A DNA stretch of 64,000 nucleotides from a virus. The position numbers and the translations under genes are program-made. The stretch lies in the IMG/VR virus record IMGVR_UViG_3300009788_000087, one strand, 5' to 3'. Positions 9,020 through 44,233 of this stretch are shown one piece after another. Within the stretch, counting starts at the first letter, position 1; each line of letters starts with the position of its first letter. The notes beneath the pieces are model-generated. The model searched no databases. It was not told where the DNA came from and saw nothing but the letters and a program-made list of their open reading frames with translations.

Positions 9020-9538
9020 CTATGACACGCATCGTGATGAATGATCTAGGATACACTCGTACGACACCATCCCACTCGAAGGTAATCCAGCTGTACCGTG
9101 CTCATCGACAGGAGTAGATAGCTGTAATGTATCATTCGTCAAGGGCACAAGAGTACCATCACATGTGAGTGTGGGTTCAGTCTGGCTAATATAAATCGTG
9201 TGATCCCATTGTGGTGCTGTGTTCGGAGTGCTCACGGTCGGAGCTGTTCCCCACCAATATTGTGGATAAGACGGAGGATAGACTGGCCAAGTCTGTTGTG
9301 GCCATGCATGTGGCTGCGTACGCTCATGGTTAGTGAGAGCGTCCTGAATCATGCGAGTGACACTCTCCTCGTTTAGAATCCGCTTACCAGTCTTGCTCGA
9401 CTCATTCTTCTTGTCGCCACTGGGCTTCTCGAGTTGAGCCAGTTCCTCAGCTGTGCCTTCAAATTCAATGACAGTGCCGTCAGGCTGTGTTATCTTCTTC
9501 TTCATTATCTGTAATCTCCATCTTCCATTGTGAACCAC
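9020..9538 (-). CDS. hypothetical protein with Pro/Trp/Tyr-rich low-complexity region
   Basis: WPQQTWPVYPPSYPQYWW; true start likely MKKKITQ. Confidence 0.6.
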   Translation of the reverse strand: MVHNGRWRLQIMKKKITQPDGTVIEFEGTAEELAQLEKPSGDKKNESSKTGKRILNEESVTRMIQDALTNHERTQPHAWPQQTWPVYPPSYPQYWWGTAPTVSTPNTAPQWDHTIYISQTEPTLTCDGTLVPLTNDTLQLSTPVDEHGTAGLPSSGMVSYECILDHSSRCVS

Positions 9539-10016
9539 GACCGAAATCTTTAAGATCCACGCCGTCTATATAGATATCATTCTGACATATAACTTCTACA
9601 GAATTATTCATCAGGAGCTCGATGCCTTCTGTATTCCTGTATAGTTCCGTGTACACGACTTGTTCAATTCCAGCATTTATGATTCGCTTAGAACACATCT
9701 TGCAGGGTGATGTCGTGGTATACAAGCGTTTAAATGAAGGATCATTGAAGTCTAACTTGATGATAGCATTCTCTTCCGCGTGCAAGCATCCACATTTTCC
9801 TGGTTCTTTCGAATCACAACCGTGTGGCCCGCCCTTGTAATTTCCATTGTAGCCGATGGCAAGAACACGATTGTAGTCCCACGATGTGATGACACATCCA
9901 ACTGAGGCTCGCAAACACATACTTCTCTTACTGAGAATATACGCGAATGTCAGATATACGTCAGCCCAGCGAGGACGTGAGACAATCGTTGAGCTCTCCT
10001 CGTATACGTAGCTCAC
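9480..10016 (-). CDS. dCMP deaminase (cytidine/deoxycytidylate deaminase family)
   Basis: S.C.R..VG, GYNG, HAEEN and PCKMC zinc motifs. Confidence 0.93.
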   Translation of the reverse strand: MSYVYEESSTIVSRPRWADVYLTFAYILSKRSMCLRASVGCVITSWDYNRVLAIGYNGNYKGGPHGCDSKEPGKCGCLHAEENAIIKLDFNDPSFKRLYTTTSPCKMCSKRIINAGIEQVVYTELYRNTEGIELLMNNSVEVICQNDIYIDGVDLKDFGRGSQWKMEITDNEEEDNTA

Positions 10017-10351
10017 ACTATCGTGAATACATCTTGATTAGATGTCAGTGCTACAACCACAGCGACAGTGCTACCACGATCGATGGGGATTGAGGCAGCT
10101 AAACACTTCACGTGTGCTTCAACCTCTTGTCCTGGAAGAACGAGTGTTGCTTTGTTGACTAGCTCTAACCCCTGACTGCGTGCATAGTCGCACTCTAACA
10201 ATAATACTGGTACGTTAAAGGTAACACCAAGCGGAACACGTTTAACTTCATCTTCTGCAAGATTAAAATCAAGTGGTGCGCCCAACCTAAGAACTGGTAG
10301 TTCTCCTTTTGGTGTTGTTCCATCGCCTAATTGACATTCTACTATAGCCAT
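10013..10351 (-). CDS. degenerate trimeric dUTPase-like protein
   Basis: Residual VPLG and I.RG..VA patterns; catalytic motifs not recognisable. Confidence 0.4.
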   Translation of the reverse strand: MAIVECQLGDGTTPKGELPVLRLGAPLDFNLAEDEVKRVPLGVTFNVPVLLLECDYARSQGLELVNKATLVLPGQEVEAHVKCLAASIPIDRGSTVAVVVALTSNQDVFTIV

Positions 10352-10362
10352 AATCTTTCCCT

Positions 10363-11490
10363 TTATCTATTCACTACGTTTTCAATCTTATCCACGAAAT
10401 TGGATACATCCATAAATCTTAGCTTCTCTATGTTCTTTGACCTGATGTCATCACGTTCTTTTACACTGATAGTTGCGAGGTTTTCAACGATGAAACACAG
10501 CTCATTAGGATCATCAGCTATGAACTCCACATAGTCTTCGATACCTAAGTGTGGTTTCAGGCCGACAGGTATCGTACCAAATAACAGCGCTTCCCATGGT
10601 CGAGGAGTAATGAACCCGCTCTCAAGGTATGACTGCTTACCAAGCAATGGACACGCAGCTGCAGTACCATACACACGTCTGAAATCTGATATCGTTATAC
10701 GTTCGTTATACAAGACATACGGCCATTTCAATCTGCATTCAGTAAGGTTCGGTTCGCGTGTCCAGTTGCCCCAAAACTCTACTTCAAACCTAAATGCCTC
10801 GCTGACAGGTGCTATCCACTTATCGATGACATCATCTCTTTCGTACCTTGATCCAATGTAAACGAGCTTTCTACTCTTACTAACGGGGAGTGTTGGGAAC
10901 TGGTATAGATCATCTACTACGATTGGCGGCTCCACTCTTGTTCTATAAAATCCGTAGTCCAACGGTTTGACTGACGTCTCAAAGATTGCATCGGGTGCCC
11001 ACTTCACCTCATCCTCTAGCGTTAGTTTATGATCTAGATCCCACAGTATAATCTTGGTGCTCTTACCTTTGAAGTATTCAAGTATCTGCGTCTGTCTATC
11101 AAGGTCTGACTGATAGCCCACATCATTAATATCTATGTCAATGTTCCTACCTGGAATTGGGAAGCGCCATTCAATGAGAAGCACGTCAAGTTCGGGTAGT
11201 TCATCCAATTCAGTCAATGAAATGTCTGCTGTTGTTAACGTCTTGAACGATCTACGCCATGCATTATATCGTTTTTCAGTAGAGAATGAAGAGAATGCAT
11301 TATGAAACTTACCACTCACATATTCAAAGTCACGATCACGTTGAAGTAAATACGTCTCCCATCCTCGCTTCTGTGCTTCATGAAGAATGGACCATGAGTA
11401 CGCTGCATTACCATCAGGGGTGGAAACTTCCTTGCCGAACTCGAATTTACGATCAGCGATGAATCCCCAGTATGCGTAACCTAATCTCAC
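10363..11490 (-). CDS. GT-B glycosyltransferase resembling T4 DNA beta-glucosyltransferase
   Basis: C-terminal LVYIGS...VEFWGN...LLGKQSYLESGFITPRPWEAL parallels BGT VIYGGS...IEFFGN...IIGDKNYNDNFITLRVWETM (BGT recalled from memory). Confidence 0.75.
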   Translation of the reverse strand: MRLGYAYWGFIADRKFEFGKEVSTPDGNAAYSWSILHEAQKRGWETYLLQRDRDFEYVSGKFHNAFSSFSTEKRYNAWRRSFKTLTTADISLTELDELPELDVLLIEWRFPIPGRNIDIDINDVGYQSDLDRQTQILEYFKGKSTKIILWDLDHKLTLEDEVKWAPDAIFETSVKPLDYGFYRTRVEPPIVVDDLYQFPTLPVSKSRKLVYIGSRYERDDVIDKWIAPVSEAFRFEVEFWGNWTREPNLTECRLKWPYVLYNERITISDFRRVYGTAAACPLLGKQSYLESGFITPRPWEALLFGTIPVGLKPHLGIEDYVEFIADDPNELCFIVENLATISVKERDDIRSKNIEKLRFMDVSNFVDKIENVVNR

Positions 11491-11759
11491 TTAGTTTGCT
11501 TGTGGGGATATGATGGAGAAGATGGGCGCCCACTTGGGTGAATGTCATATTCGATACTGCCATGTTTACTCGGGTGATATGCATCAGAAGCATTCGCTTG
11601 AGTTGCATATGGTATTAGCTTCTTAAATCTTTCAAGTTGTGTAACTTTAATTATAAGCTCGTTAATCTGTGCTTCACGTGTCTTACTTGGAACAACAGGA
11701 AGTAACCAAATCGAGAACCTAAAGAACTTTATCGATAGCCATTTTCTAAATCTTCTCAT
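11487..11759 (-). CDS. small hypothetical protein
   Basis: 90-aa ORF overlapping both neighbours by 4 nt. Confidence 0.55.
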   Translation of the reverse strand: MRRFRKWLSIKFFRFSIWLLPVVPSKTREAQINELIIKVTQLERFKKLIPYATQANASDAYHPSKHGSIEYDIHPSGRPSSPSYPHKQTK

Positions 11760-12301
11760 AACTCTACCTTTACACCGCTATCTGAATTTAGACTGCGTAT
11801 TAGGTTAATCTTTTCCGTGAGTTGCGGCAACTGTCGTTCAATGTCATCATCGTAGTCATCAACAAAGATCTTAATAACATGACAATTCGTCTGATGATAG
11901 AATCTCGTATATCTATTATGTAGTGCTTCTAATTTGTGTGATTCTACGAGCTCATCATTTACTACAGAATAATCATGACGCAGACACATTACGACAATAG
12001 CACCCATCTCGCTCCACTCACTATCAATTCGATTCAGTGGTTCAGAAAGTGTTGAGCGTCCATACACGTCTGAATACACGATCTCTGATATGTAGCATCT
12101 ATCTGACACAAACGCAGTGTCTGTCTGTCTCACAAACTCAGGTAACAGTATATCAAATGGAATAGAGCTTGTAAAACAATCATTGATCCAGTTTGATTTT
12201 TCAGTTGTTACCTTGAAATATGGGATCCCATAGTGATTAGAGAGAGCGTGGGAAATATGAGTTTTGCCGCATCCGTCTGGACCTTCTACAAAGATGATCA
12301 T
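11756..12301 (-). CDS. dNMP kinase (thymidylate-kinase-like P-loop)
   Basis: MIIFVEGPDGCGKT, SDR motif; ATG at 12301 overlaps upstream TGA. Confidence 0.85.
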   Translation of the reverse strand: MIIFVEGPDGCGKTHISHALSNHYGIPYFKVTTEKSNWINDCFTSSIPFDILLPEFVRQTDTAFVSDRCYISEIVYSDVYGRSTLSEPLNRIDSEWSEMGAIVVMCLRHDYSVVNDELVESHKLEALHNRYTRFYHQTNCHVIKIFVDDYDDDIERQLPQLTEKINLIRSLNSDSGVKVEL

Positions 12302-12996
12302 GGTTTTCTTACACACCAATAATCTGAGGGTGCTTGCCCTTCTTCGTTCGACCATCTTTCGTGCTCTATTGGAAGATCGTGTAGAGGACTATAAAACATA
12401 TCACCTACTGCAGCCATCACACCTTTCCAATATTCGCAGTAATCATCACCGAACATAATGCCACCAGCACGAAGTAGTGGCCAGTATGCTTCGAGATCTG
12501 CTAAGACATCTTCATACTCATGGCTACCATCAATGTAGATGAGGTCTGCTTGCACGTCTTTCTTTCGCAATAGACGAGCAGCATTTGTTGATGTCTGTGG
12601 AAATGGTGTGATTCGACCTTGGTTCCCAGTTATAATTACATTTGCAAGAAACTGATAGTATACTTGTGGATAACCATTACACAACTCGAGAGACTTGTAT
12701 CTCTTCTCGTCCTTGTGGTCCTCCCAAAATTCTGTCGCACCAAGCCATGTATCAACACATGTAATCTCAGTCTTACCTCTTAACTCTGGATCTGCGCCGC
12801 ATATATCTGCCATCGTGATCGCAGACTTACCTTTCCATGTACCAACCTCAATGATAAGTTCAGGTTTTACTTCATCGATCTTCTTCTTGAAATATTCATA
12901 ATGTCCGCCCCAACCTTGAGCATCGAATGAATATGCTACTAAAGGAAAATCCTTGTAGATGTCATGGTCGTAAAGAATATCATAGATTCTACTCAC
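12298..12996 (-). CDS. class I SAM-dependent methyltransferase (Methyltransf_24-like)
   Basis: IEVGTWKGKSA, VDTW, YIDGSHEYEDV..D, GGIMFGDDY; probable GTG start at 12996. Confidence 0.88.
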   Translation of the reverse strand: MSRIYDILYDHDIYKDFPLVAYSFDAQGWGGHYEYFKKKIDEVKPELIIEVGTWKGKSAITMADICGADPELRGKTEITCVDTWLGATEFWEDHKDEKRYKSLELCNGYPQVYYQFLANVIITGNQGRITPFPQTSTNAARLLRKKDVQADLIYIDGSHEYEDVLADLEAYWPLLRAGGIMFGDDYCEYWKGVMAAVGDMFYSPLHDLPIEHERWSNEEGQAPSDYWCVRKP

Positions 12997-14077
12997 TGCC
13001 AACCCCTTTGAATAATCCTGCCCAGATCTGCATGGCTTTGCCGAGCTTCTTGAAGTAGTCCGTATATTCGGGGAATTCATCATACTTGGTGATGTGTTTT
13101 CCGAGATGCATGTATATCGTATTAGCTTCTATATAACCTTCAACTATTCCAGGATGATCGAATGAGTCTACATACTCCCACAGCTTCTCATTCACCTCGA
13201 GACCATTTGCTTCCTTCTTTAGGTTGGTGAATGGATTGGATGCACGCTCGTGCCTGATGTATGGAATCCCGGTGCTGACAGTTTTACCTAGAATATCTGC
13301 GCACTTCTTCATAAAGATGCCGCACCATATGTCACCGAAGCGATCGAATGGAAGTTTTTTCAAAGTTGTATATGGTTTCAATTCAAAGTCTTCTGGCGTA
13401 ACTTTAGGTTTCAACTGTTGCCCCATCAGTAAGTGATACATCAGTACCGTGTACTCTGCTTTCCACATCACGTTCATCCCACACATGGGGAAGTATGAAC
13501 CATGGGGCACGATCTTATTGTCATAGGCAAACTTCTCTTCTACGGGATTGACGAGCTGAGTGGGCGCATCATAGTCTATTACATTCGTCCACAGCCCGTG
13601 ATTTACAATCGTATCGTTCCGTTCACCAAGATTGTAGAACGGTATTCCACGAGGTTTCACACAGTCGAGAGTATTGAACCATCTTGTGCGGCCACCATTG
13701 AGATATTTCTTGTGTTGCTCGACGAATCCTTTGCCATCATATATGTGATCCATCGGATAGCAGTCATCATCGAGTGTCATGATGTACCTATAGCCACATG
13801 AATGCGCATACCAATATGCAAAACTTCTGACAGTATCAGATCTTCGTGGGATTATCCACTCATCCTCACCAAGTCCATCCCGGATATTTTTCCAACACAA
13901 ATGTACGATATTATTTTTGGAACCATCAAAAACTTTGAATGTCTTTGTTGGATTGTCTTCCATAACAAACAGGTCTACATGATCGAATAGACCGATATCA
14001 TTCCACCTCTTATAAAAATCAGTGAAGCAATTCTCACGAATCGTAGGAACTATTAATGCGATTTCTTTAGCGATCAT
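12989..14077 (-). CDS. RGP / UDP-arabinopyranose mutase homolog (GT75)
   Basis: TLDDDC, RGIPF, HGLWTNVIDYDAPTQLVNP, FPMCGMN, TGIPYIRHERASNPFTNLKKE match conserved plant RGP/UAM blocks. Confidence 0.88.
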   Translation of the reverse strand: MIAKEIALIVPTIRENCFTDFYKRWNDIGLFDHVDLFVMEDNPTKTFKVFDGSKNNIVHLCWKNIRDGLGEDEWIIPRRSDTVRSFAYWYAHSCGYRYIMTLDDDCYPMDHIYDGKGFVEQHKKYLNGGRTRWFNTLDCVKPRGIPFYNLGERNDTIVNHGLWTNVIDYDAPTQLVNPVEEKFAYDNKIVPHGSYFPMCGMNVMWKAEYTVLMYHLLMGQQLKPKVTPEDFELKPYTTLKKLPFDRFGDIWCGIFMKKCADILGKTVSTGIPYIRHERASNPFTNLKKEANGLEVNEKLWEYVDSFDHPGIVEGYIEANTIYMHLGKHITKYDEFPEYTDYFKKLGKAMQIWAGLFKGVGSE

Positions 14078-14080
14078 CTT

Positions 14081-17000
14081 TTATCCCTCTACCTCATCCA
14101 CATTAATTAATGCACCATCTGCACTGTATTCACTGTGTGCCCATCCCGGTTTGCCAAGCACGAGATTCTGTGGTTCATCCAGCTTTCTATTGAAGGTGGC
14201 AAAGAATACATTACCCTTCACTGCTTTCTTCGCAATGTACCGCCAGATTGTTGCGAAGCACGGTGCGTCAAACTCAGTCCCATTTCTGTCACCGAACTTA
14301 ATGAATGCCATCATGCCACCACGAGACTGAGCACGTTCACGGACATCTTTAATGATTACAGGGATGACACCGATTTTATCCTCTGACTTCACAAACTCTT
14401 CAAAGTCTTGAACCATGCCTTCCTTAGCAAGTATCTCTATCTTCTTATCCCTATCGAATAGTTTGAATGGTGTACCAATAAGATTGAATCCAAGCAACTC
14501 ATTCTCATACTCTACAAGCTTAGCGATTGGATGCGGTTCACACTCAAGAGCAAAGTACTGCTCTTCAAATTCAGCTTTCTTTTTCTTGACGCGAAGCTTT
14601 GGATTGTCCTGCCACAATTCATACCTCAACTCAGTCAGCGCCATGTTCTCTTCCAATGAAGTAAACGCACCGACCTTGATAAGGGGAACCGTTGCAGTCT
14701 TACCACCGCCTGTCTTATAGAGATAATCACGTAGACTCTCATACGGTTGGCTCTTCTCAATCTTCTTAACAGCTGCGTCACCGACACCCAACGCAGAACC
14801 AAGTGCTAACCTGATCGCAACACCCTCAATCTTGTGAAAAGCACTCGATTTATTGATATCTACCGGCAGAATCTTAAATCCCTGACGCTTGATGTCGTCC
14901 ACATAAGATTGAAGATCATCTGCTTTACCATGAATTAGAAGTGCTGTAAAGAATTCAAGTGGATAGTATGTTCGAAGGAATGCAGTCTGCATGGAGATCA
15001 TAGCATAGCACTTGGCATGACTGGCATTGAAACCATATCCACCAAAGTGCTCGAACATATTCCATAGTTCAAGACCCTGCTTCTCAGTCAATCCATTCTC
15101 TACACATCCCTTAACGAATGGTTCTCTTAGCTCCTTCTTCTCGTTCTGAAGGAAGTCATCCTTCTTTGACTTGTCTTTCTTTAGGAACAGCTTCCTAAGT
15201 CTGTTGACATGTGTCATCGGTAGCTTACCGAGGTGGTGACCGATGTTTAACATCTGTTCCTGATATACAAGACAACCGTAAGTCTCCTTCATGATCTCTT
15301 CCATCATGGGATGCACATATTTGATCTTGTCAGGGTTGTGTTTGTTCTCAGCGTATAGCTTATGCATGCCTGAACCAAGTGGTCCCGGTCTATAGATCGC
15401 ACCGATCGCTGACACGTCATTGAAGCAGTCAGGTTTAATCCGTTGAGCTACTTTCCTGATACCTTTGTTTGTAAACTGAAATATGCCCGTGAAATTCCCG
15501 TCGATGAAGACTGTCTTGATTACTTTCTGATCATCGATGTCCATGTACGTTGGATCGACCATCTTATATGCTTCATCATAATTCATGTCATGTCGTTTAG
15601 ATATTAGCCTAAGTGCACGGTCGATGACCGATAGAGTTGAAAGCGACAGTATGTCAAACTTGACAAATCCCATCGCTGAACATTGCTTGTTAACAATCCC
15701 GTCAGTGAACGATGTTTGTAGAACTCCTTTATTCTGGAATAGAGCCATCTCTCGAGGTAGGTTGTCTCCGATAACGAGGCCACAAGCATGACGTCCCACG
15801 TGACGATTCTTCCCATACAACTTAGTGATATTTTCACCGATGACGGGATACTTCTCGACGAGAGCTCTGTAAGTAGGAGAGACTCTAACGACATCTTCGT
15901 ACTTGATGTCGATGGTGGACTTGTCTTGGCCTTTACCTCGCAAGACTCGAAGCTCGCCCTCGATTTTCTTGTTTGCCTTGTTGATCTCTCGATGGTCGAT
16001 ATCATAGACACGTGCTATATCCTTGAGTAGTCCCTTAATTTGGAATGTACCGTATGTGCTGATGCAAGCGACGTTGTCGTGACCGAACATCTCACGGAGC
16101 ATTTCGCGCGCTTGCTCGCTATCTTGAAAATCAGTATCAATGTCAGGAAGCTCGACACGGGAAGGGTTAATAAATCGCTCGAATAGAAGATTATGTTTAA
16201 TGGGATCGAGATCTGTGAGACCACTGAGGTAACAAACAAGAGAACCAGCAGCACTACCACGTCCCGGTCCCACGAGCATTTGCTCTTTGGCTTTGGTAAT
16301 GATGTCACGCATAATGAGGAAGTATGAGGCAAAACCCTTCTCCTTAATCAGCTTCATTTCATGCATGAAGCGTTTACGATACTGCTCATCATCAGTGAGG
16401 TTCAGCTCTTTCATCCTCGCAATGGCCACCTCACCCAGTTTCTTGAATGGATGCTCGAACCTACACGTTGGAAGCCTCTCTTCCGTATTAGGTTCATAGT
16501 CTTCAACCATCGAGTCAATGAGCAGTGTATTTTCAAATGCCTCACGAACAAGATTTGCATCTGCATCGCCACCAAAGCGCTCGAATGTTTCCCACATCTC
16601 TTGAGGTGACTTAATGTAGAGCTGCTTGATATTAAAATCCCAGTCATCTCCTCTTGTCGACATCGTCTTCTGACTGCGAAGCATGTAAAGAATTTCCTGC
16701 GCAGCCCACTCGTCTGAGTTCACGTAGTGTGAATCGCATGTTACATTGAGCGGGATTCCAGTCTCATGATGCACTTTGATAATAGACTCGTTGATAAATC
16801 GCTGAGAATCAGACTCGTTGAACTGCAGCTCAAGGAAGAATCTGTCACCGAAGATCTCCTTATATTCTTCAGCTTCACGAACGACATCACTCCACTCAGC
16901 GTCACCGTTCTTCCATGCCCAGCACCTATTAGCAATGACTCCGCCCATGCACGCTGAAGACGCGATGACTCCGTTACCGAAATCATTCATCATCCTCTTA

Positions 17001-17464
17001 TCGATCCTCGGCTTCATGTACATGCCCTCCTTGTGCGCAAGGTGTGTGAGGTTGTACAAGTTATCGAGACCCGCCTGATTCTGTGCTATGAGAACAAGGT
17101 GACCTTTCCTATAGAGAGACTTCTGTCTACTCTTCATATCGAGATTGGTAGCATCTTCATCTACCGCCTCAGACTTCTTTAGCTTCTTCAGTGACTCCTT
17201 GTCGGACTCTAACTTTGCTTTCTCTTCTGACCACTTCTTTAGATCATCAATCGCATATGCTTCAACACCGTAGATTGTGCGGACTCCATGTTTCTTTCCA
17301 TGCAGATAAAAATCTGCAATACCATGCATATGCCCATGATCAGTTAGTGCAATAGAGCAAAGACCTTTCTCCTTCGCTTTAAGGACCATGTCTTCAGGTC
17401 GAGACAGACCATCCATGAAACTGAAGTGGGAGTGATTGTGCAGACTAGCAAAATCTTTTATCAT
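14081..17464 (-). CDS. dnaE: DNA polymerase III alpha subunit
   Basis: PHP HNHSHFSFMDG, GPGRGSAAGSLV, PDIDTDF, KFDILSL, VYQEQ, YGFNASHA, C-terminal OB fold; no intein. Confidence 0.97.
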   Translation of the reverse strand: MIKDFASLHNHSHFSFMDGLSRPEDMVLKAKEKGLCSIALTDHGHMHGIADFYLHGKKHGVRTIYGVEAYAIDDLKKWSEEKAKLESDKESLKKLKKSEAVDEDATNLDMKSRQKSLYRKGHLVLIAQNQAGLDNLYNLTHLAHKEGMYMKPRIDKRMMNDFGNGVIASSACMGGVIANRCWAWKNGDAEWSDVVREAEEYKEIFGDRFFLELQFNESDSQRFINESIIKVHHETGIPLNVTCDSHYVNSDEWAAQEILYMLRSQKTMSTRGDDWDFNIKQLYIKSPQEMWETFERFGGDADANLVREAFENTLLIDSMVEDYEPNTEERLPTCRFEHPFKKLGEVAIARMKELNLTDDEQYRKRFMHEMKLIKEKGFASYFLIMRDIITKAKEQMLVGPGRGSAAGSLVCYLSGLTDLDPIKHNLLFERFINPSRVELPDIDTDFQDSEQAREMLREMFGHDNVACISTYGTFQIKGLLKDIARVYDIDHREINKANKKIEGELRVLRGKGQDKSTIDIKYEDVVRVSPTYRALVEKYPVIGENITKLYGKNRHVGRHACGLVIGDNLPREMALFQNKGVLQTSFTDGIVNKQCSAMGFVKFDILSLSTLSVIDRALRLISKRHDMNYDEAYKMVDPTYMDIDDQKVIKTVFIDGNFTGIFQFTNKGIRKVAQRIKPDCFNDVSAIGAIYRPGPLGSGMHKLYAENKHNPDKIKYVHPMMEEIMKETYGCLVYQEQMLNIGHHLGKLPMTHVNRLRKLFLKKDKSKKDDFLQNEKKELREPFVKGCVENGLTEKQGLELWNMFEHFGGYGFNASHAKCYAMISMQTAFLRTYYPLEFFTALLIHGKADDLQSYVDDIKRQGFKILPVDINKSSAFHKIEGVAIRLALGSALGVGDAAVKKIEKSQPYESLRDYLYKTGGGKTATVPLIKVGAFTSLEENMALTELRYELWQDNPKLRVKKKKAEFEEQYFALECEPHPIAKLVEYENELLGFNLIGTPFKLFDRDKKIEILAKEGMVQDFEEFVKSEDKIGVIPVIIKDVRERAQSRGGMMAFIKFGDRNGTEFDAPCFATIWRYIAKKAVKGNVFFATFNRKLDEPQNLVLGKPGWAHSEYSADGALINVDEVEG

Positions 17465-17474
17465 ATTCCGTATT

Positions 17475-17786
17475 CTAACTGATCGATTTCTTAGAAGACT
17501 TACTAATAGGTATTTCAGCGAGATATCCGCTTAAGACACTATCTCTAAGTCGTTCGTCAACGTAGGCTCTTTTTGCTTCTTCAAATGAACAACGACTCCA
17601 TCGTTCATTTCCAAGAGAATCTTTACTAAGAGACTCTGTAACGACATAAATCTCATATTGCTTGCCATTAATCCCTACATTTAGAAGATGATAAGGATCG
17701 TCTGCTCTCTCGGATGCAATGAAACGATAGTCCTTACATGATAACACAACTCTCGGTAGTTTTAGATTTTTAGTAACCACTTTCAA
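17475..17786 (-). CDS. hypothetical protein
   Basis: 103-aa ORF inside the coupled operon. Confidence 0.6.
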   Translation of the reverse strand: MKVVTKNLKLPRVVLSCKDYRFIASERADDPYHLLNVGINGKQYEIYVVTESLSKDSLGNERWSRCSFEEAKRAYVDERLRDSVLSGYLAEIPISKSSKKSIS

Positions 17787-18150
17787 ACCTTTCTTTTACA
17801 ACTCGGTTCTTACGACAGAACTCATTGTACATCTCTTGTGGTGAGATGCCGGACAGTATACAGATCTCCATGAAATACGCCAATGTATCTCCTAGCTCTT
17901 CAACATAGTGTGAACGATCGAATTCCCTATCATCAGTCACTTTATGTATCTTGTTCTTCAGAGTATACGTTGCCTCCCACAGTTCATTGTGACAGTCACT
18001 AACGATCTCCTTGATCATACGTTGACCCTGTTTAGTTGTCAAATCAATCGGCCAAGGAGGTAGGACATCACGTTCTTCCAATATCTGCATGTTCCCCTCT
18101 TGGCGATAGAACATGTCTTTCCATAAGTCAGTTGAAAGTGACATCGTCAC
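17770..18150 (-). CDS. all-alpha dNTP pyrophosphohydrolase (MazG / dimeric dUTPase / dCTPase-like)
   Basis: ELWEA...EELGD acidic helices and C-terminal KN......R...GY. Confidence 0.8.
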   Translation of the reverse strand: MTMSLSTDLWKDMFYRQEGNMQILEERDVLPPWPIDLTTKQGQRMIKEIVSDCHNELWEATYTLKNKIHKVTDDREFDRSHYVEELGDTLAYFMEICILSGISPQEMYNEFCRKNRVVKERFESGY

Positions 18151-18550
18151 TCCTTACCTTATAAGTCTGCGGACCGGACGCATCAGTTATCAGGCACTTA
18201 CCAACGTTAGACACGAGATCCCACGCGCATGATGGGTGCCAATAACTTTCAAGCAAACCCTGCACCTTTGATCGCATAAAATCATTCTCACTGAATAAGA
18301 TGATTGTCCCTACATTTATACAACATAGATGCCCGATGAGTTCGTCGGTCAACTCGACACCCCTTACAAAGATCTTATCGTAGACCTTCGAGTAGTTGAG
18401 ATCAGATACGTCTTCTACATGATCCAATTCAGCTACATACTTCTTCATGAACGACATTGGATCTGCACCAAGGAACAGCATCCTATCAGAAGACCTAACT
18501 CCTGTCACGTCAGAGACGTCATCACATTTGCTATACGGATTCTTTGTCAC
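18128..18550 (-). CDS. hypothetical protein
   Basis: 140-aa ORF overlapping both neighbours. Confidence 0.6.
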   Translation of the reverse strand: MTKNPYSKCDDVSDVTGVRSSDRMLFLGADPMSFMKKYVAELDHVEDVSDLNYSKVYDKIFVRGVELTDELIGHLCCINVGTIILFSENDFMRSKVQGLLESYWHPSCAWDLVSNVGKCLITDASGPQTYKVRSDDVTFN

Positions 18551-19511
18551 GTTTTTCCTTATGCTCCACTAGTTGTTGAAACATCCACAATAGAGTTTCA
18601 TTCTGTACTGGCAATGATTTTGGTAGTAGTGCACCAGTTCGAAGGCATTCCTCTGCCGTTATTAGAATATCTAGCTCCTCAAGATTACTCAGCGGTGCCA
18701 TCGGTTCAGTGAATTTACCTCGTTTTGGACTAGAATCTTTTATCCACTTCGCATACCTTTGCCTATGTTCATTCAACATCTTCTCTGATAATTCGTAGTG
18801 TCGATCATAGACATGGAGTGAACCAGTTGTGTGATAATACAGACCAAGCTCTAAGTCTGGATAGTGTTTCTTTAGCTCTAATAACATGCACTCTTGAAAG
18901 AGAGTGAACGAGAATAAATCATACGTCAGTCCCCAGTGTACATCATTTGAGCGCATATTGACATGGAGATGTAGCTTATTCTCTCGAATAAAGAATTGAA
19001 GAGAAAGCGTGCACGGTACATCTTTGGATCCTTCAGTATCTGCATTAAACTGATGTACTGGTTGGTGGATTTGCAACACTGCTCTTCTGCTATCTTTGTC
19101 AGATTTAAGCGTGTTAATACAGATTTTCCACTGGTCAACTTTTGCTGCTTTATCTGGTCCTGTTGGTGCCATCCCATGAATGATATGACCATACGCAGAT
19201 ACTACAGTCTTTCCGTCATCTGAAAACTGCGGCATCCTCTTGTTGTAGTACGTCATCTCCTCAAGAGAGTTCGAGCCGCGCCAATACCAAAGGAACTCAC
19301 CGACTGCAAACGCATATTTAGACTTACGGACTTTAGATGATAGTAGTCTGTTACGAGGATCACTGAGGATCAAGCGAGGTACTAAGACTTCTCTTACTTC
19401 AGTGCCACGTGGTTTGCAAACATAGTCAGGGAAAGACATCTCCATGAGGACATCGTACATCAACTCATCGAAGCTATCCTTGACAAACCTATATCCCACC
19501 ATTGGCTTCAT
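18531..19511 (-). CDS. thymidylate synthase homolog, predicted dCMP-modifying (hydroxymethylase-type)
   Basis: GEFLW, DSRRA, catalytic PCT, MRSNDVHWGLTYD with Asp at the Asn177 specificity position, LHVY. Confidence 0.85.
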   Translation of the reverse strand: MKPMVGYRFVKDSFDELMYDVLMEMSFPDYVCKPRGTEVREVLVPRLILSDPRNRLLSSKVRKSKYAFAVGEFLWYWRGSNSLEEMTYYNKRMPQFSDDGKTVVSAYGHIIHGMAPTGPDKAAKVDQWKICINTLKSDKDSRRAVLQIHQPVHQFNADTEGSKDVPCTLSLQFFIRENKLHLHVNMRSNDVHWGLTYDLFSFTLFQECMLLELKKHYPDLELGLYYHTTGSLHVYDRHYELSEKMLNEHRQRYAKWIKDSSPKRGKFTEPMAPLSNLEELDILITAEECLRTGALLPKSLPVQNETLLWMFQQLVEHKEKRDKESV

Positions 19512-20416
19512 GGGTGTATGACCTCAAGCAATTCTTCGATAGTCTTCCTATCAATCGGGTGTCCTGCGGCTCTAGCATGTCCGCCGCCTCCAAACTGTTT
19601 CGCTATCTCTGTTGCGTCCACTTTTTCTGTGCTCCTAATGCTCGCGACACCACCAAAGCTATTCAACTTAATTCCAATCGCCACATCACAATCATGTCGT
19701 TCCATGACACGCTGTAGAAGTTGTGATTGGTGATCGCTACAGAAAACATAGGCACACTTCACACCATCTAACTCTTTAAAGAATGGTTTCTCTGAGTGTT
19801 TCTCAATGTATTTATCTCTCTTGGATTCGAGGACCTTCACGACATTCAAGTCTGCGTCTGTCATTAGTGGATAACATTTCCTAATCCTGTATGTCATCAT
19901 GTCCACGAACTTTTCTTGACCGAAGAAGTTAGCAAAAAGACTGAGCTGATCAGATTTTGGATCCTTTCGTATCCACATGTCACGATCATTGATCATTTCA
20001 GCGAAGTTCCAAACTGCACCCCAATGATCATCAGGTTCACCATTTTCAAACAGATAGTCGTAGAGTAAGAATGTGCCACACTTCTCCATGTTGATGTGAC
20101 ACCAATCTCTGTCTTTAAGATCGAGTGCAGTCTTGTGGTGATCGATGATTGTTATGTCACCGTGGTACAGCTTCTCAAATAGATCAGCTGTCTCAGTATC
20201 ACATGCAACATCAGCTATGATTACACGATCATGTGTCTCAAATACGTCTTGGTTCTTCTTATAGAAATCTCTAACACCATTTCCCGCAGGAACGTAGTGG
20301 ATATTCTCTTTCTTGCCGCCAGCGAGGAGGAACACGACTGCACAACCTGAACCGTCGCTACAACCTTTATGAGTTATTAGTACTGAATTCTTTAGTTCAT
20401 CAGGTTTATATTTCAC
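19508..20416 (-). CDS. DHH/DHHA1 phosphoesterase
   Basis: H...SDG, ADV, DHH, GGGGHARAAG motifs. Confidence 0.9.
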   Translation of the reverse strand: MKYKPDELKNSVLITHKGCSDGSGCAVVFLLAGGKKENIHYVPAGNGVRDFYKKNQDVFETHDRVIIADVACDTETADLFEKLYHGDITIIDHHKTALDLKDRDWCHINMEKCGTFLLYDYLFENGEPDDHWGAVWNFAEMINDRDMWIRKDPKSDQLSLFANFFGQEKFVDMMTYRIRKCYPLMTDADLNVVKVLESKRDKYIEKHSEKPFFKELDGVKCAYVFCSDHQSQLLQRVMERHDCDVAIGIKLNSFGGVASIRSTEKVDATEIAKQFGGGGHARAAGHPIDRKTIEELLEVIHP

Positions 20417-22164
20417 AAATCACACGTGCCATTCTTGCATGAGTCGATTGCAGTGGCTTCTTCCTTTGCAGTCTGTGCATGCTCTACAGCCTTTTCAAGT
20501 GGGATGGGAGTGAGTGGCTGGTCCTCGCGACTCCCATCTGGATATACTGTCATGCCTTTTAATTCAGGCAGAAACTCCATATAAAGATCTGATAACTCCT
20601 CAGCAGATGTATCTGACATTAAGTTGATTGTCTTGCTAACCGCGTTGTCGACGTGTTGTTGGCATGCACGCTGCATTTCAAGATGATCCCGAATTGAGAG
20701 ATCATGCGCACCTTGGAAGTGTGAGACGTCCCTGCCCTCATCGAGGAATCTCTTAAGGAGAGGATGGACAACCACCTCAGTGTCATATTGATTTCCCTCG
20801 TCGACTCTGAAGCGTCTCTCGTATGCAGGGGCAAACATCGGCTCAATGCCAGACGTGACTCCACATACCATAGAAGTTGTGCCTGTCGGTGCGATCGTCA
20901 AGAGTGCAGCATTTCTAATTCCATGTTCTTTAATCTTCCTTCTAATCGTCGGTTTAAGAGTCTTAACAAAATTGGACTTCAAGAATAAGTCTGCTTTAAA
21001 AACTGGAAAACAACCCTTCTCTTTTGCCAACTCCACTGATGCTTCGTATGCATAATTCTTTATAGTCTTCATGAGCTTATCAACAAGCTCCAAACCCTCA
21101 GGACTATTATAACACAAGTCATTCATTAATAACACATCATGTAGTCCCATAATGCCAAGCCCTATCCTTCTAACTTTCTTACATGTTTCAGCAATTTCCG
21201 ATAGTGGATAGTTGTTTACGCTAAGGACGTTGTCAAGAAACCGGACGGCTTTAGATACTGTGTATTTTAAGAGTTTCCAATCTATTCCACCCGTGTCTTT
21301 TACAAAATTGGGTAAAACAAGTGATCCCAAATCACATGCGCCGTACTTAGAAAGCCAGAGCTCGCCGCAAGGATTCGTACTAATGAGTGGTTTCCAGTAC
21401 CAGATGTTGCTCATCCTATTTGCATACCATCCATTAAGAATGCCGGGCTCACCACTCTTCAATGCATTCTTAATGATACGATCCCACAGTTCACGTGCTG
21501 GGATAACGCCGATAGCTTTATCACGATGTTTAAACTCAAATGTGCCACCGTCTCGAACGAGCTTAAAGAAGTCTTCCGGATTCTGGTCAAACACGACTGA
21601 CACATTTGCATTCGTTAATTGATTAAGATCAAGTTTCTTATCAAGAAACTCAAGTAGATCACCGTGTCTAAGATTAAGACAGAGCATAAGCGCTGTTCGA
21701 CGGCCACCACCTGCTTTGATTACATTACCTGCTGCATCGACGATTTCCATAAGAGAAACTGCACCAGTCGCTTTACCACCTGATCCATTAATATCTGTGC
21801 CACGTGGTCTAATAGGCGAGCAGTTCATTCCTACGCCGCCGCCAACGCCTGAGATCACAATCATGTCACTGACAGTCTTTCCCCAGCCTTCGCGACTATC
21901 TTCTGTGGGTATTACAAAACAATTTAACAACTGTCCTTTAGCTCGACCAGATCCTGCCCAAATTCTACCGCCAGGCATGAATAAGTTCTTACTAAGAATA
22001 TCATATGAGTCATCTCTAAATTTTAGAATGTCATCACCCTTCTCAGCCATTGAGACATGAGTGGCAACTCGCATGCATGCATCATTCCATGACTCATCAT
22101 CATGAATCGTATATCTTAAGTTGAATATTTCTTTGGCAAGACCAGTAGGTTGGTAACATTCCAT
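20413..22164 (-). CDS. nrdJ: ribonucleotide reductase, probably class II (B12-dependent), no ATP cone
   Basis: PGGR, LLNCF, GGGVG, TNPCGE, RRIGLG, TIAPTGT, C-terminal Cys pair; no beta subunit nearby. Confidence 0.85.
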   Translation of the reverse strand: MECYQPTGLAKEIFNLRYTIHDDESWNDACMRVATHVSMAEKGDDILKFRDDSYDILSKNLFMPGGRIWAGSGRAKGQLLNCFVIPTEDSREGWGKTVSDMIVISGVGGGVGMNCSPIRPRGTDINGSGGKATGAVSLMEIVDAAGNVIKAGGGRRTALMLCLNLRHGDLLEFLDKKLDLNQLTNANVSVVFDQNPEDFFKLVRDGGTFEFKHRDKAIGVIPARELWDRIIKNALKSGEPGILNGWYANRMSNIWYWKPLISTNPCGELWLSKYGACDLGSLVLPNFVKDTGGIDWKLLKYTVSKAVRFLDNVLSVNNYPLSEIAETCKKVRRIGLGIMGLHDVLLMNDLCYNSPEGLELVDKLMKTIKNYAYEASVELAKEKGCFPVFKADLFLKSNFVKTLKPTIRRKIKEHGIRNAALLTIAPTGTTSMVCGVTSGIEPMFAPAYERRFRVDEGNQYDTEVVVHPLLKRFLDEGRDVSHFQGAHDLSIRDHLEMQRACQQHVDNAVSKTINLMSDTSAEELSDLYMEFLPELKGMTVYPDGSREDQPLTPIPLEKAVEHAQTAKEEATAIDSCKNGTCDL

Positions 22165-29764: not shown

Positions 29765-32700
29765 TTATTTCTCTTCCTCATCCTCTGGCGGAATCTCTTT
29801 ATTATTGACACGATTAAACTGAGCAGTCGACCAAGGAGAAGACTGCGCGCCGCGGCCAGCAGCATAGTGACCCATGCCCGACATCGACATGCTAGTGCCT
29901 GGAGGGGCGCCAAGCTCAGCAATGAATCGTTCAGCGAGCTTTCTTGATGCATGCTCCAACACATCGGGCTCTGCACCAGGTGAATTAGATTTACCTAGAT
30001 CATTGATTATATAATGAGAACCCCGCTTCATCACATTACCACTGTGATAATCAGCGAATTCGATATTGTGTTGTCTCAATTCAGCATGCATTTCAGGAAT
30101 GTTGTATTTCTTTAAGAGATTTATATTGAACCCATACTGTCTCGTTGTAGCCTTTCTAATCTTATTTGCACCCTTGGGATCATTTGGATCTACACCAAGT
30201 TCTTTTGCAGCTTCCTCTTTATATTTTTCATAGAGAGCATTTTCAAACTCTTCCCATGATTTTGTTGCAACAATCTCGATAAGATCATCATGCTCTCCCA
30301 TAAAATCAGTTGCTCTATCAACATCACGTTTTTCAGTAGCGCTAAGTTCTGTCAACTTCTCTGTTACAATACCGTAGATTAATGGCTCCTCTCCAGGAAA
30401 TCTGAATACATCAAAGATCTTTACGACGTGTTGTAAAGCTGTTTTTCCTTTGAGCGAATTGCTGGTCACTGCTTCTCGTGCATCTGTCGTGACTTTAAGA
30501 ACTTTTCCTCCGCCTGCATCAAATGCAATACCCATCGCTCCATGACCAAGATATCCGAGTGATGACGCATTAATACCAGTTCTCTCTTTTAGTTTATCAG
30601 CGTTCACTATCACGATCTTTTCAAGATTATCAATGCCCACTGACTCTAGATCTGGGGATTTTTCTACTTCTGCTTCAGTGATTGCTTCCTGGATAGAGAT
30701 AACATCTTTCATCTCTTCACGCATGTCATCATAGATGTTATCAAACCCCTGTGGATCTGAGATAACGTGTGCGTCGAGCATCTTCTCAACGGTGTTCCTG
30801 TCATTCTTGGCAAGTGCGTCGCGAATTGCAGTGGATGATATTCTTTCCATGTCATCCATGTCATTCTTCACACCAGGAAGTTTCGTGACATTAACGAGTG
30901 CTGGATCGAAGTTGGGTAGATTCTCCCTGTTTGCAGCTGCATGCTGCATCTGTTTCTTCATGCTCTCGAATCTATCGGGACCGACAAGCACGTTGATAGC
31001 AATTTCGGGTTCAATGGATGAATTGTGATCGTTGATAATGTCAGACAACACGCCTGGAATGTAGCCGCTGGCTTTACCTTCCCACTCAGCCACATACACT
31101 TCAACCTTCGGCATGACATCAGGTAGAGATCTTTGCATCATCTCTACTCTTGTCTCGTATGACCACGGATTCTTCTTGTCTCTCTTGTTTCCTGCTACAA
31201 TGACCACGACCTTTGTGAACTTTGATGCTAGGTCACGGATGATCGCTGCATGTCCTTTATGGAAAGGCTGGAAGCGACCGATAGTCACGCCGATAGTGTC
31301 TGCTGGGTTGTAGTTTGGTTCTTCAAACATGCTCTTCACAACTTCAGACACTATGTTATCAACGGTATTCATTGATTCTGAAACTTGAACGCCTGGAACA
31401 TATTCCTTTACCCAATTCGCTGCCCCACGTGAACCGAAATCGTCGTTATCAGCATCCCAATCTTCGAAGTCATGAGAAAGAATCTTCGCATTCGGGGCAG
31501 CTTTCCTAAAGAAATCGACGAGCGCATTCCAATGTATATGAGACAAACCACCACTTTCCAGATCAGAAATATTATGCACTTCTTTCATGTCAGGTGTAAT
31601 TGTTACCATCGCTCCACGATTTTTTAAAACTGGATTATCTCCCTTGTGTAAGACCCATAAGTCTGCACGTTTTGCCAGCATGTCGGGATCATGACCCGTA
31701 TTGCGCCACTCATATCCACCATCTATTTTTACAGCGCTTCTTGAATCACCTCCAGTGATGAATCCAACAAATTTTTCATTTTCCTTAGAACGAAGAAGTT
31801 CCTCATCATTAAGTTCTGATTTTGTTTTGTTGAAGAACTCTTTCACATACTTCCAATATTTTTGATCAGGAGCTCTATTCTCTTTTCCTTTTATCTGAAG
31901 AACTGTTTTATTTGCTTCATTCCACGTCATCGTCACGTGTGGTTTATTGCTTGGATCACGAAGCGAAATTAAATTGCCACGTTCATCTTCACCACAGTGT
32001 CCCATTTTTTCAGCTTCATGAGGGCATGACGATTTCTTAAGATCAGTCCAATAAAAACCATCAGGAAATTCAATGATAGCATTGCTTTTATCTCGCTCTG
32101 CCGAAGCATCATCTGCAATCGTTTCAATTGTATTAAAGTCTTTTGCTGCCTGTATTTTCTTGGCTAGATGTGGTTTTTTCTTCAAAGTAGAAAGAAGATT
32201 TGAACCAAAATCCTCCATAAATTCATCGACTCTATCTTTTCTTTTTCCCAACTTAAAGCGCTGAATATTAGGTGGAAGCTGATCGTCGATGGTGAGAGAT
32301 TCGACAAAGTCGTCATCCCATTTTTCACCATAAAGTTTAAACGCTGTAGCAAGTGCAAAAGTATGTTTTTTATCTATCTCATAGAAATGATCAGCTGCCC
32401 ATTTTGGAAACTTAAGAAGCCTCGTAATATTTCCACGTGAGTCTTCATCGATCATGCCGACAGTGTCCGCCTCATTGGCGGTCTGATCACTACCGGCTTC
32501 TAGAAAAATAGAATAAACCTGTTCTCGAATGATTGACTCAAGCACATCGGGTTCTTCTCCACCTTGGACATCTGAAAGACCAATGTCAATCAAGACATAT
32601 TCGCCTCCCCTCTTCATGAGGTTTTCACCTCGATAATCAGAGAATGAAATGCCTTTTCCTTTCAATTCCTCCCATGAAGACTTTACTTTGTATTCATTTT

Positions 32701-42427: not shown

Positions 42428-42727
42428 TCAGCTATCACGGCTTTCTCTTTCTTCGACAAGTTTCTGTGCAAAATACCTAATGAAGTCTGTCTCAAAGAAC
42501 TCCATGGCTGCTTCGAACACAAGCTCCTCAGACTGATCGACATATGATACATCTACCTGAGGATAGTGTAAACACCATAATGTTAGTGGGTTTCCTTCTG
42601 GATCCTTTGGATCCCTGACATCATCCTTGTGTAGACGATATTCTGCTTTTACCTCAGCACCCTTCACACACATTTTTGCTGAGTCTTGTCTAACCAAATT
42701 CTCGAGGTTTAGTTGAAAGTCAATCAT
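42428..42727 (-). CDS. hypothetical protein
   Basis: 99-aa ORF overlapping the polymerase stop. Confidence 0.6.
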   Translation of the reverse strand: MIDFQLNLENLVRQDSAKMCVKGAEVKAEYRLHKDDVRDPKDPEGNPLTLWCLHYPQVDVSYVDQSEELVFEAAMEFFETDFIRYFAQKLVEERESRDS

Positions 42728-44177
42728 TTTGATCCCAATAGTTTAGACCCGATTTTACCTTAACTTTCAGTCTCATTCCGAAAAGTCTAGCTGAACCGAG
42801 TTCCATTATGTCTCGCATCTCATCGAGGTACTCCATCTCGTCTGGATGCATATCGATAACTAGCTCATCATGCACAGTGAATAGCATCACTGATTTCTTG
42901 TCCTGAAGAAAATCATGTAGACTTACGATTGAATCCATGAACACATCACTTGTGCAAGTCTGTGCATAAAGAGCGAGCACTTTGCCTGGATGTTCTGATC
43001 CATTCAGATCAATTTTCATGTCATCTGGTGTAATTACATACCCTTGATTCATTGATTCAGAATACATCTTCTCTCTGAAGAACACGATTGGTGCGAATAG
43101 TTCATTGAGTTTCTCAACGAGAACTCCTACTTTCTCACTCGACAAACCAGTTGTCTTTGGCAGATTCTTCAATGATCCACCGTAAAGTCGTGTATACGTG
43201 ATTGTCTTTAGAACACGTCGTCTGATACCAGATGTGTCATGGAACTCGTTATCTCCAAAGATATACTCTACAGTTCTATCGTGAAAATCGTCGCATCCTT
43301 CATAGTATGCGTTAAGGTTCTCATCGTCAACTGATGCTACAATGCACCTATAATCCGCAGCGTTGAAATCGAAGGTTGCAATCTTGCCGCCATCAAATCT
43401 ACTGACGATACTCTGACGTACATGGTTTCTTGGTATATTCATGCATTTGAAAGAACCTTTCGCTGTATGGACTCTTCCGGTCTTGGTTCTTTGTGGTATG
43501 AACTTGTTATAGACATATGATCCAGACATCTTGTCTCTGATGTGTTGGATGAATGCCAAATCGTGTGTTGTCATGCCTGCATCAAGATCAATATTATCAG
43601 GGTCTACGTGCACACTATTTTCTTCCATGAGATATAGGACACGTGCTCTATCATAACCAAAAGATCGAAACTGTTCACTATCAAACTTCTTCACCAGTGT
43701 ATTGACCATCCAGTTTCTTAATCTATAGAATGATATTACCACCTTACTTGGGATTATATCAATGAGAGAGTGTTCGTCAAGATTAATCTTCGCTGTTTTA
43801 CATGCCTTGATATGTGAATTGTACTCATGTCTTCCTGCAAGATACTCAACGACATCAGCATCTTTGATATGCTTATTGACTGCTTTGTACAGGTTTTCCT
43901 CACCTGCCATCACTGACACATCTATCACATCACAGTATCTCTTGAAATTACAACCAAGCTTAAGCACATCACGCATGTCAAAACAGATCTTCTCATGCTT
44001 GTGAGAGAAGATCTCATGAATGAAACCATCGAATTCGTCCCAGTCGTTATTCAGGACAAAATAATGATCTGCACCAAAGGATAGAGAAATGCCTTTGACT
44101 CCGGTCGAGTCCTTCACTGCTTCGAAAGTGAACCCTTCATTCTGGGCTCTCTTCTTCAGAGTCTCCAAATGCGCCAT
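42720..44177 (-). CDS. family A DNA polymerase-like protein (polymerase domain, divergent)
   Basis: TGR, motif A FDFNAADYR, DFH, motif B RRVLKTITYTRLYG, motif C VHDEL; probable ATG at 44177. Confidence 0.85.
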   Translation of the reverse strand: MAHLETLKKRAQNEGFTFEAVKDSTGVKGISLSFGADHYFVLNNDWDEFDGFIHEIFSHKHEKICFDMRDVLKLGCNFKRYCDVIDVSVMAGEENLYKAVNKHIKDADVVEYLAGRHEYNSHIKACKTAKINLDEHSLIDIIPSKVVISFYRLRNWMVNTLVKKFDSEQFRSFGYDRARVLYLMEENSVHVDPDNIDLDAGMTTHDLAFIQHIRDKMSGSYVYNKFIPQRTKTGRVHTAKGSFKCMNIPRNHVRQSIVSRFDGGKIATFDFNAADYRCIVASVDDENLNAYYEGCDDFHDRTVEYIFGDNEFHDTSGIRRRVLKTITYTRLYGGSLKNLPKTTGLSSEKVGVLVEKLNELFAPIVFFREKMYSESMNQGYVITPDDMKIDLNGSEHPGKVLALYAQTCTSDVFMDSIVSLHDFLQDKKSVMLFTVHDELVIDMHPDEMEYLDEMRDIMELGSARLFGMRLKVKVKSGLNYWDQND

Positions 44178-44184
44178 CTCCTTT

Positions 44185-44193
44185 ATTATAACA
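44185..44193 (-). promoter_or_regulatory. extended -10 promoter, probable leaderless start of the PolA-like gene
   Basis: TGT-TATAAT then 7 nt to ATG 44177. Confidence 0.5.
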
Positions 44194-44233
44194 CATCTCT
44201 GTGCCAATTAATACTAAGTATGACACAAAAGTG

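Follow-up and report, generated by a model that had tools for sequence, protein, structure and literature searches.

The only characterised homolog of the gene described here is BGT of phage T4, a DNA beta-glucosyltransferase (CAZy family GT63; Pfam model PF09198; PDB entries 1bgt, 1qkj and 1j39). BGT-like enzymes of the GT-B type are also described from non-T-even viral contigs, where GT53, GT66 and GT94 put non-glucose sugars on 5-hydroxymethylcytosine (5-hmC), and about 28% of the mined viral GT-B matches were associated with thymidylate synthase (TS) homologs (10.1101/2023.12.21.572611). Phages RB69, DLP3 and RL38J1 carry arabinosyl or galactofuranosyl 5-hydroxycytosine, kinase-glycosyltransferase-TS clusters and furanose UDP-sugar donors, and RL38J1 encodes its own pyranose-furanose mutase for making the donor (PMC13326640). 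Here, we analysed a stretch of 64,000 nucleotides of viral DNA (IMG/VR record IMGVR_UViG_3300009788_000087; hereafter the window), in which a single intact ORF on the minus strand (10363-11490) encodes a 375-aa BGT-superfamily GT-B glycosyltransferase (hereafter GT). An earlier note, made from the letters of the window, had read this gene as a T4 BGT-like DNA glycosyltransferase far outside the T-even group with a changed donor sugar. Profile comparisons of the protein sequence confirmed that GT and T4 BGT are truly homologous, though very distantly related. We consider it reasonably probable that GT is an inverting GT-B enzyme that acts on 5-hmC in DNA with a UDP-furanose as the probable donor, completing a T4-style replacement of cytosine.

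Three motifs that the earlier note had matched to T4 BGT by eye are present in GT at near-equal spacing. YIGS, EFWGN and FITPRPWE stand at residues 211, 238 and 293, and their counterparts YGGS, EFFGN and FITLRVWE at residues 186, 211 and 265 of T4 BGT (sequence from AF158101), which gives spacings of 27/55 vs 25/54 and the shared patterns YxGS, EFxGN and FITxRxWE. As a single sequence, GT had no match in Pfam, PHROGs or the PDB (phmmer, E ≤ 10). A profile built from a 43-member alignment of the GT family matched only T4 BGT and its D100A mutant among 177,635 PDB sequences (E 2.5e-5), and T4 BGT is the only solved protein that the family profile detects. The stretch from EFWGN to FITPRPWE gave an E-value of 1e-4 against T4 BGT in pairwise BLASTP. 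In hhalign, the 43-member alignment matched the single BGT sequence with 79.5% probability (E 1.5e-5, 239 columns), and a 22-member alignment of true BGT relatives with 95.5% probability in local mode (E 1.5e-8, 171 columns) and 96.2% in global mode (E 1.6e-9, 315 columns). In the reverse direction, a phmmer search with T4 BGT among 268 collected sequences retrieved GT family members (best E 3.2e-7), and T4 AGT as the query had no match among the same 268 sequences. The profile matches and the reverse search indicate that the likeness is genuine but remote homology, at about 13-15% identity. The motif likeness drawn by eye was thus confirmed by profile statistics, and the T4 BGT-like identity is supported both by the match to the PDB and by the alignment to the BGT family.

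An AlphaFold2 model of GT built on the 43-member alignment (pLDDT 92.9, pTM 0.92) has two Rossmann-like domains and places GT in the GT-B fold, which it shares with T4 BGT. In a Foldseek search against the PDB and in a second structural comparison, BGT and AGT tied with many GT4 enzymes; the best Foldseek E-value (1e-10) belonged to T4 AGT (PDB 1xv5, 1y6f and 1ya6), which acts on 5-hmC in DNA. Comparison with the structures of T4 BGT, which the earlier note had proposed as a check, therefore bore out the GT-B fold, but structure alone does not separate BGT and AGT from GT4 enzymes. A search of BFVD gave no close viral structural relative, all matches being at or below 15% identity.

Residues that hold UDP in BGT are largely kept in GT. 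UDP binding in BGT involves S189, R191, R195, R269 and E272, and the profile alignments mapped S214, R218, R297 and E300 of GT onto S189, R195, R269 and E272, S214 being part of the first motif together with Y211 and G213. R191 of BGT aligns with Y216 of GT, and an Arg (R215) stands one residue earlier. When conservation was counted over 124 representatives of the wider superfamily, R218 was found in 121, R297 and E300 in 120 each and R109 in 123, and the residue at E107 was acidic in 118. The N-terminal half, which had been described as divergent, is indeed too divergent for a confident local alignment. That description was incomplete, since all three hhalign modes, at low column confidence for the N-terminal domain, place the invariant E107 of GT (E107-W-R-F-P) on D100 of BGT (D100-I-R-L-P). 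D100 is known as the catalytic base of BGT, whose D100A mutant is PDB entry 1nzd. On this placement, both proteins would have an acidic residue at the base position, Glu in GT and Asp in BGT, with x-R-x-P after it; E107 ends a strand (103-107) in the GT model. An EX7E motif in the C-terminal domain is the mark of GT4 retaining glycosyltransferases. On inspection of its sequence, GT lacks it: E300 takes the place of the second Glu, and eight positions before it stands the invariant Gly292; BGT is likewise non-acidic at the position of the first Glu. No GT4 model was matched by GT in Pfam or NCBIfam. Since the first Glu is Gly in GT and non-acidic in BGT, the mechanism is predicted to be inverting and BGT-like.

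The main evidence for the acceptor comes from gene linkage. We compared 21 related loci, of which 18 came from IMG/VR and the other 3 from further assemblies, in which GT is 27-63% identical to that of the window, and scored neighbours within 10 kb. A TS homolog, encoded in the window at 18531-19511 (minus strand; PF00303, E 1.2e-24), lies near GT in 12 of the 21 loci and at the edge of one more. A TMK-like kinase with the P-loop GPDGCGKT (11756-12355, minus strand; phrog_761 thymidylate kinase, E 2.4e-13; weak dNK and Thymidylate_kin matches in Pfam), predicted to act on hydroxymethyl-dCMP (hm-dCMP), is near GT in 17, and a dCMP deaminase (9480-10016, minus strand; PF00383, E 2.5e-17; phrog_174, E 3e-43) is downstream of it in 11. 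The order DnaE-RGP-kinase-GT, in which RGP is a GT75/reversibly glycosylated polypeptide and the DnaE-type DNA polymerase III alpha gene (14081-17464, minus strand; PHP, DNA_pol3_alpha, finger and HHH_6 domains) is immediately upstream of RGP, recurs as a syntenic block in contigs with only 42-63% GT identity. Distant members (27-33% identity) without RGP have a TS homolog at a distance of 0-3.5 kb. In one of them, locus L011, the end of GT (9218) and the start of the TS homolog (9222) are four bases apart, an arrangement that mirrors the annotated T4 record, where b-gt abuts gene 42. Linkage to a TS homolog of the dCMP-hydroxymethylase type is thus common to GT and T4 BGT, and because it persists over this divergence and through changed gene orders, we regard it as the main evidence for a hydroxymethylcytosine acceptor.

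The active site of the TS homolog carries the same signature as T4 gp42. In an alignment with E. coli ThyA, T4 gp42 and RB69 gp48, it reads RSNDVHWGLTYD, vs RSNDVVFGFRND in gp42 and RSCDVFLGLPFN in ThyA. The catalytic Cys (in the aligned DVPCT), the RSND stretch and Asp169 are kept, and, as in gp42, Asp is found at the positions of ThyA Asn177 and ThyA Leu143. This is the dCMP-hydroxymethylase pattern, and the protein is predicted to be a dCMP hydroxymethylase. Among the 12 linked TS homologs, 11 were readable at the active site and all 11 were of the gp42 type (Cys and D169 kept, Asp at 177); the twelfth ORF is cut short. These results strongly support a link of GT to hydroxymethylcytosine. 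A 5-hydroxycytosine acceptor of the RB69 type was considered separately. The substitution D169N is diagnostic of 5-hydroxy-dCMP synthases (PMC13326640), and RB69 gp48 has Asn at position 169. As D169N is absent from the window and from all readable linked TS homologs, this acceptor was rejected.

Taken together, the cluster would encode the following pathway. The gp42-like TS homolog would convert dCMP to 5-hydroxymethyl-dCMP, the TMK-like kinase and then a host NDP kinase would raise hm-dCMP to the triphosphate, and the phage DnaE polymerase would incorporate hydroxymethylated dCTP into DNA. GT would then glycosylate the hydroxymethyl group at its oxygen, using a UDP-sugar as the donor, with Glu107 serving as general base where BGT has Asp100 and with S214, R218, R297 and E300 holding UDP. 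The adjacent GT75/RGP mutase would supply a UDP-furanose of the UDP-arabinofuranose type, and in the lineage of the window the sugar may in addition be O-methylated. We infer the acceptor, the choice of DNA over nucleotide, the stereochemical course and the donor sugar from the comparisons given here; by analogy with BGT, the most likely acceptor is 5-hmC already in DNA.

The points that weigh against this pathway concern family membership, the catalytic residues, the charge of the protein, a bacterial branch of the superfamily and the supply of the donor. None of the 43 family members, GT included, matched PF09198 at E ≤ 1, and true BGT relatives all carry this model down to 27% identity. By strict Pfam definition, therefore, GT is not a member of the BGT family; on its sequence, it belongs to a wider superfamily that contains BGT. 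Weak matches to PF13524 (Glyco_trans_1_2, CgeB-type) were found in 13 of the 43 members (best E 6.9e-6), GT itself having none at E ≤ 1, and in an ESM-Atlas feature search GT was nearest to PF13524-labelled bacterial clusters (0.97-0.98), ahead of T4-Gluco-transf clusters (0.96). Together with the structural tie, which extends to GT4 enzymes acting on envelopes and small molecules, these matches could mean that GT is a CgeB-type glycosyltransferase with a non-nucleic-acid acceptor (envelope, virion protein or metabolite) and that its position in the replication module is incidental. We judge this very improbable. The PF13524 matches do not refute the link to BGT: such a match is also present in about half of the bona fide BGT clusters, and bacterial PF13524-like relatives also adjoin TS homologs. 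The linkage to gp42-type TS homologs holds over the whole range of identity and in differing gene orders, and no envelope-polysaccharide genes were found around GT, whose setting is nucleotide metabolism and replication. The earlier note had named a best match to CgeB-type envelope enzymes as the outcome that would speak against its proposal; what we found is this weak PF13524 signal shared with genuine BGTs. With regard to the catalytic residues, the low confidence of the N-domain columns bears on the pairing of E107 with D100, and D151 and D153 (122 and 121 of the 124 representatives) are as invariant as E107 and are alternative catalytic residues.

Whether the sugar is added to DNA or to a nucleotide bears on the same reading. 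GT has a pI of 5.08 (family range 4.8-6.8, median 5.67) vs 9.05 for T4 BGT, which is weak evidence against DNA binding; we largely set this argument aside because T4 AGT, at pI 6.11, is acidic as well. A branch of the superfamily in bacteria, which has profile E-values of 1e-42 to 1e-49 and keeps an E-[WY]-R-x-P motif, was found on apparently cellular contigs with Suf, LytB and CPSase genes nearby (L039:3705-10387 and L040, both from soil metagenomes; and the contig carrying P0191), where it adjoins a TS homolog of the Asp177 type. Its clusters contain a carbamoyltransferase, a methyltransferase (fused to the glycosyltransferase in P0207), an APH-like kinase, an SDR epimerase and aGPT-Pplase3, and one contig adds a sulfotransferase, an ATP-sulfurylase/APS kinase, a dCMP-deaminase-like protein and an ABC transporter. 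These look like clusters for the biosynthesis of a decorated hydroxymethylcytosine nucleoside, or like a cellular DNA-hypermodification island. Since they resemble small-molecule clusters, the superfamily may plausibly use an acceptor at the nucleotide level, and the bacterial branch suggests a stronger link to hydroxymethylcytosine and a weaker case for DNA as the substrate.

The same chemistry could accordingly be carried out on free 5-hydroxymethyl-dCMP, glycosylation being pre-replicative or serving to control the nucleotide pool. In addition to the acidity of the family and to the carbamoyltransferase, methyltransferase, sulfotransferase and ABC transporter genes of the bacterial TS clusters, which typify small-molecule products, the position of GT between a nucleotide kinase and the dCMP deaminase would fit this. 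In RB69 and DLP3, the published experiments leave the level of the first sugar, mononucleotide or DNA, undistinguished, and single glycosyltransferases were inactive on 5-hydroxycytosine DNA (PMC13326640). We nevertheless think a mononucleotide acceptor rather unlikely, as T4 BGT acts on duplex DNA according to PDB entry titles and an acidic pI is shared with T4 AGT. Moreover, phage replicative polymerases are not known to incorporate dNTPs that already carry a sugar. Transfer to 5-hmC in DNA therefore remains the reading that we prefer.

A donor other than UDP-glucose is proposed from the conserved neighbour RGP. RGP (12989-14077, minus strand) covers the full PF03214 model (E 4.1e-39), matches the solved UDP-arabinopyranose mutase 8cid (E 7.9e-12, PDB sequence search) and is a predicted UDP-sugar pyranose-furanose mutase. 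It is near GT in 14 of the 21 loci, that is, in every member at least 42% identical except one, and it has more than 1,700 homologs, many of the closest being on 185-207-kb contigs. GT75 mutases are best known from plant cell-wall biosynthesis. As the cluster carries such a plant-type sugar mutase, the phage DNA probably carries a non-glucose sugar. Beyond the window, two near-complete relatives, G001 (196.5 kb, contig of L019) and G002 (185.5 kb, contig of L020), each encode a protein of the UDP-glucose/GDP-mannose-dehydrogenase family and three SDRs, one GalE-like, one 4,6-dehydratase-like and one heptose-epimerase-like (L031, L033, L035 and L037 in G001; L030, L032, L034 and L038 in G002). 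These genes are scattered, beside extra glycosyltransferases (GT4-like and heptosyltransferase-like) and far from the RGP-GT cluster, and none of the enzymes reaches an NCBIfam equivalog cut-off. Together with the mutase they could form a route from UDP-Glc through UDP-GlcA, UDP-Xyl and UDP-L-Arap to UDP-L-Araf, or serve another glycan. No enzyme making the pyranose substrate of the mutase was found within the 64-kb window. Because the sugar genes are scattered, below the equivalog cut-off and absent from the window, we treat arabinofuranose as a lead and not as a result.

A 5-hmC DNA glucosyltransferase that uses UDP-glucose, with RGP as a second glycosyltransferase or in the service of another glycan, would also account for part of these observations. 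The UDP-contacting residues are common to GT and BGT, the distant members lack an RGP neighbour (7 of the 21 loci), and a source of UDP-arabinopyranose is missing from the window. GT75 proteins also self-glycosylate and are classed as glycosyltransferases. We find this distinctly unlikely, given that RGP is kept beside the kinase and GT in all close members but one, that it covers its full family model and matches 8cid, and that the dehydrogenase and the GalE-like and 4,6-dehydratase-like SDRs of the near-complete relatives could make UDP-pentoses. The UDP-furanose donor of the proposed pathway is thus kept as the probable one. An RGP/GT75 homolog of 38% identity was also observed in LR756511.1, a 595-kb uncultured phage (L006:11995-12930), the only such record among 50,697 phage records; a search of this genome, run without a positive control, detected no member of the BGT-like GT family. 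At least one further phage setting therefore makes use of the mutase.

In its most far-reaching form, the proposal would be that GT belongs to a large, hitherto unrecognised superfamily of hydroxymethylcytosine O-glycosyltransferases, with phage and bacterial biosynthetic-cluster branches, of which T4 BGT is a small, fast-evolving offshoot; that the donor is UDP-L-arabinofuranose made by the GT75 mutase; and that the product is arabinofuranosyl-5-hmC DNA, here O-methylated. We put this forward only tentatively, as a possibility that we doubt more than we believe. Arabinofuranosyl-5-hmC was earlier attributed to RB69, whose modified base is now assigned as 5-hydroxycytosine.

Compared with the described systems, GT differs from T4 BGT, apart from its low identity, missing PF09198 match and changes at the base and R191 positions, in being acidic (pI 5.1) where BGT is basic, in the size of its family (at least 321 clusters at 90% identity vs 42 for BGT), in its place in a DnaE myovirus and not a T-even phage, and in its linkage to a GT75 mutase, which implies another donor. 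GT53, GT66 and GT94 are comparable, being BGT-like enzymes of the GT-B type that come from non-T-even contigs and attach non-glucose sugars to 5-hmC, but they are coupled to a C5-methyltransferase and TET, which produce 5-hmC after replication, and use heptose or other donors. The paper that describes them makes no mention of a mutase, RGP/GT75, pentose or furanose (10.1101/2023.12.21.572611). RB69, DLP3 and RL38J1 share with the window the grouping of a TMK-like kinase, a first glycosyltransferase and a TS homolog, as well as furanose donors and, in RL38J1, a mutase. In contrast to the window, where D169 is kept, their TS homologs carry D169N and make 5-hydroxy-dCMP, and their first glycosyltransferases resemble GT4 and not BGT. 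Their mutase is a flavin-dependent UGM and their arabinose is derived from ribulose-5-phosphate, neither route using a GT75 mutase.

In the searchable literature, we found no GT75/RGP mutase in a phage DNA-modification cluster and no description of this specific large GT family; the literature searched held nothing relevant on a phage-encoded UDP-arabinopyranose mutase or reversibly glycosylated polypeptide. Because BGT-like DNA glycosyltransferases outside the T-even phages were published in 2023, the value of the present finding lies in the specific family and its donor module and not in the concept. If the proposed reading is true, the reach of the BGT lineage would be widened from 42 BGT clusters to several hundred, in environmental DnaE myoviruses of about 185-215 kb, and the superfamily would also be present in bacterial TS-homolog gene clusters. 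The GT75 mutase would be a new donor-supply route for DNA hypermodification and would predict a furanosyl-hmC base not yet described. Such enzymes would be candidate tools for selective labelling of 5-hmC with new sugars, and the modification would matter for the recognition of a widespread phage group by restriction, CRISPR and type IV defence systems.

The gene model of GT appears sound. Its GTG start codon overlaps the stop of the preceding ORF in a GTGA junction, and the N-terminus M-R-x-G-Y is kept across homologs, which supports this start. GT had no nucleotide or protein match among the 50,697 phage records (megablast and tblastn). Its metagenomic homologs, at least 321 clusters at 90% identity, are 48-76% identical to it, and many are on 185-215-kb contigs. 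The phage that carries GT is a contractile-tailed myovirus of roughly 196 kb. Genes for a tail sheath, a baseplate hub and a UvsX-like recombinase are present in the window, as are those for the DnaE polymerase, a class II ribonucleotide reductase, DnaB and a flap endonuclease; no cultured relative of the phage was found among the same records. With a DnaE-encoding myovirus as host and GT unmatched in these records, the placement of GT far outside the T-even group held. Among the sequencing runs, the DNA was found in one, a subsurface metagenome that is probably the source, and no RNA run was listed.

All genes of the cluster from the TS homolog to the dCMP deaminase are on the minus strand. 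Downstream of the TS homolog in the direction of transcription, a 126-aa MazG-like, all-alpha NTP pyrophosphatase-like protein (17770-18150, minus strand) had only sub-threshold dUTPase_2, MazG and PRA-PH matches (E 0.014-0.041) and is a weak candidate for the dCTPase that would keep dCTP out of the pool; homologs of this ORF adjoin the TS homolog in 9 of the 21 loci. An S-adenosylmethionine-dependent methyltransferase of the Methyltransf_24/CmcI sugar-O-methyltransferase type (12298-13083, minus strand; PF13578, E 1e-20; PF04989, E 4.6e-8) lies between RGP and the kinase. A methyltransferase is near GT in only one of the 21 loci (L015), and this lineage-specific gene is possibly a sugar O-methylase. 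The 90-aa ORF that precedes GT (11487-11759, minus strand) has no family match in Pfam or PHROGs, and small ORFs in the same position of L002 and L004 are not detectably homologous. Directly downstream of GT, a 112-aa ORF (10013-10351, minus strand), also without a Pfam or PHROG match, corresponds to ORFs of 101 aa in L002 (11160-11465) and 115 aa in L004 (11112-11459). The latter two match each other with E 2.5e-10 and the L002 ORF matches that of the window with E 4.6e-5, so the position is kept and the sequence weakly so.

Several further features were observed in the window and the related loci. In L011 (5599-12283), two radical-SAM enzymes are encoded upstream of the GT family member, which is 31% identical, and a 227-aa TS homolog follows it directly; this GT-TS pair may serve a different hypermodification built on the same two genes. 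On the same contig, a DnaE gene is split by a GIY-YIG endonuclease gene. L002, a related 214-kb phage contig, has a ThyX gene (14150-14887) besides its ThyA-type homolog, a NADAR-domain gene (20407-20823) and a Pfam match to ribosomal protein S12/S23 (20903-21158). In the window itself, a 495-aa protein (42720-44207, minus strand) matches only the C-terminal part of family-A DNA polymerase PHROGs and is present beside the full DnaE, and a 2,507-aa ORF (29765-37288, minus strand) lies in the structural region.

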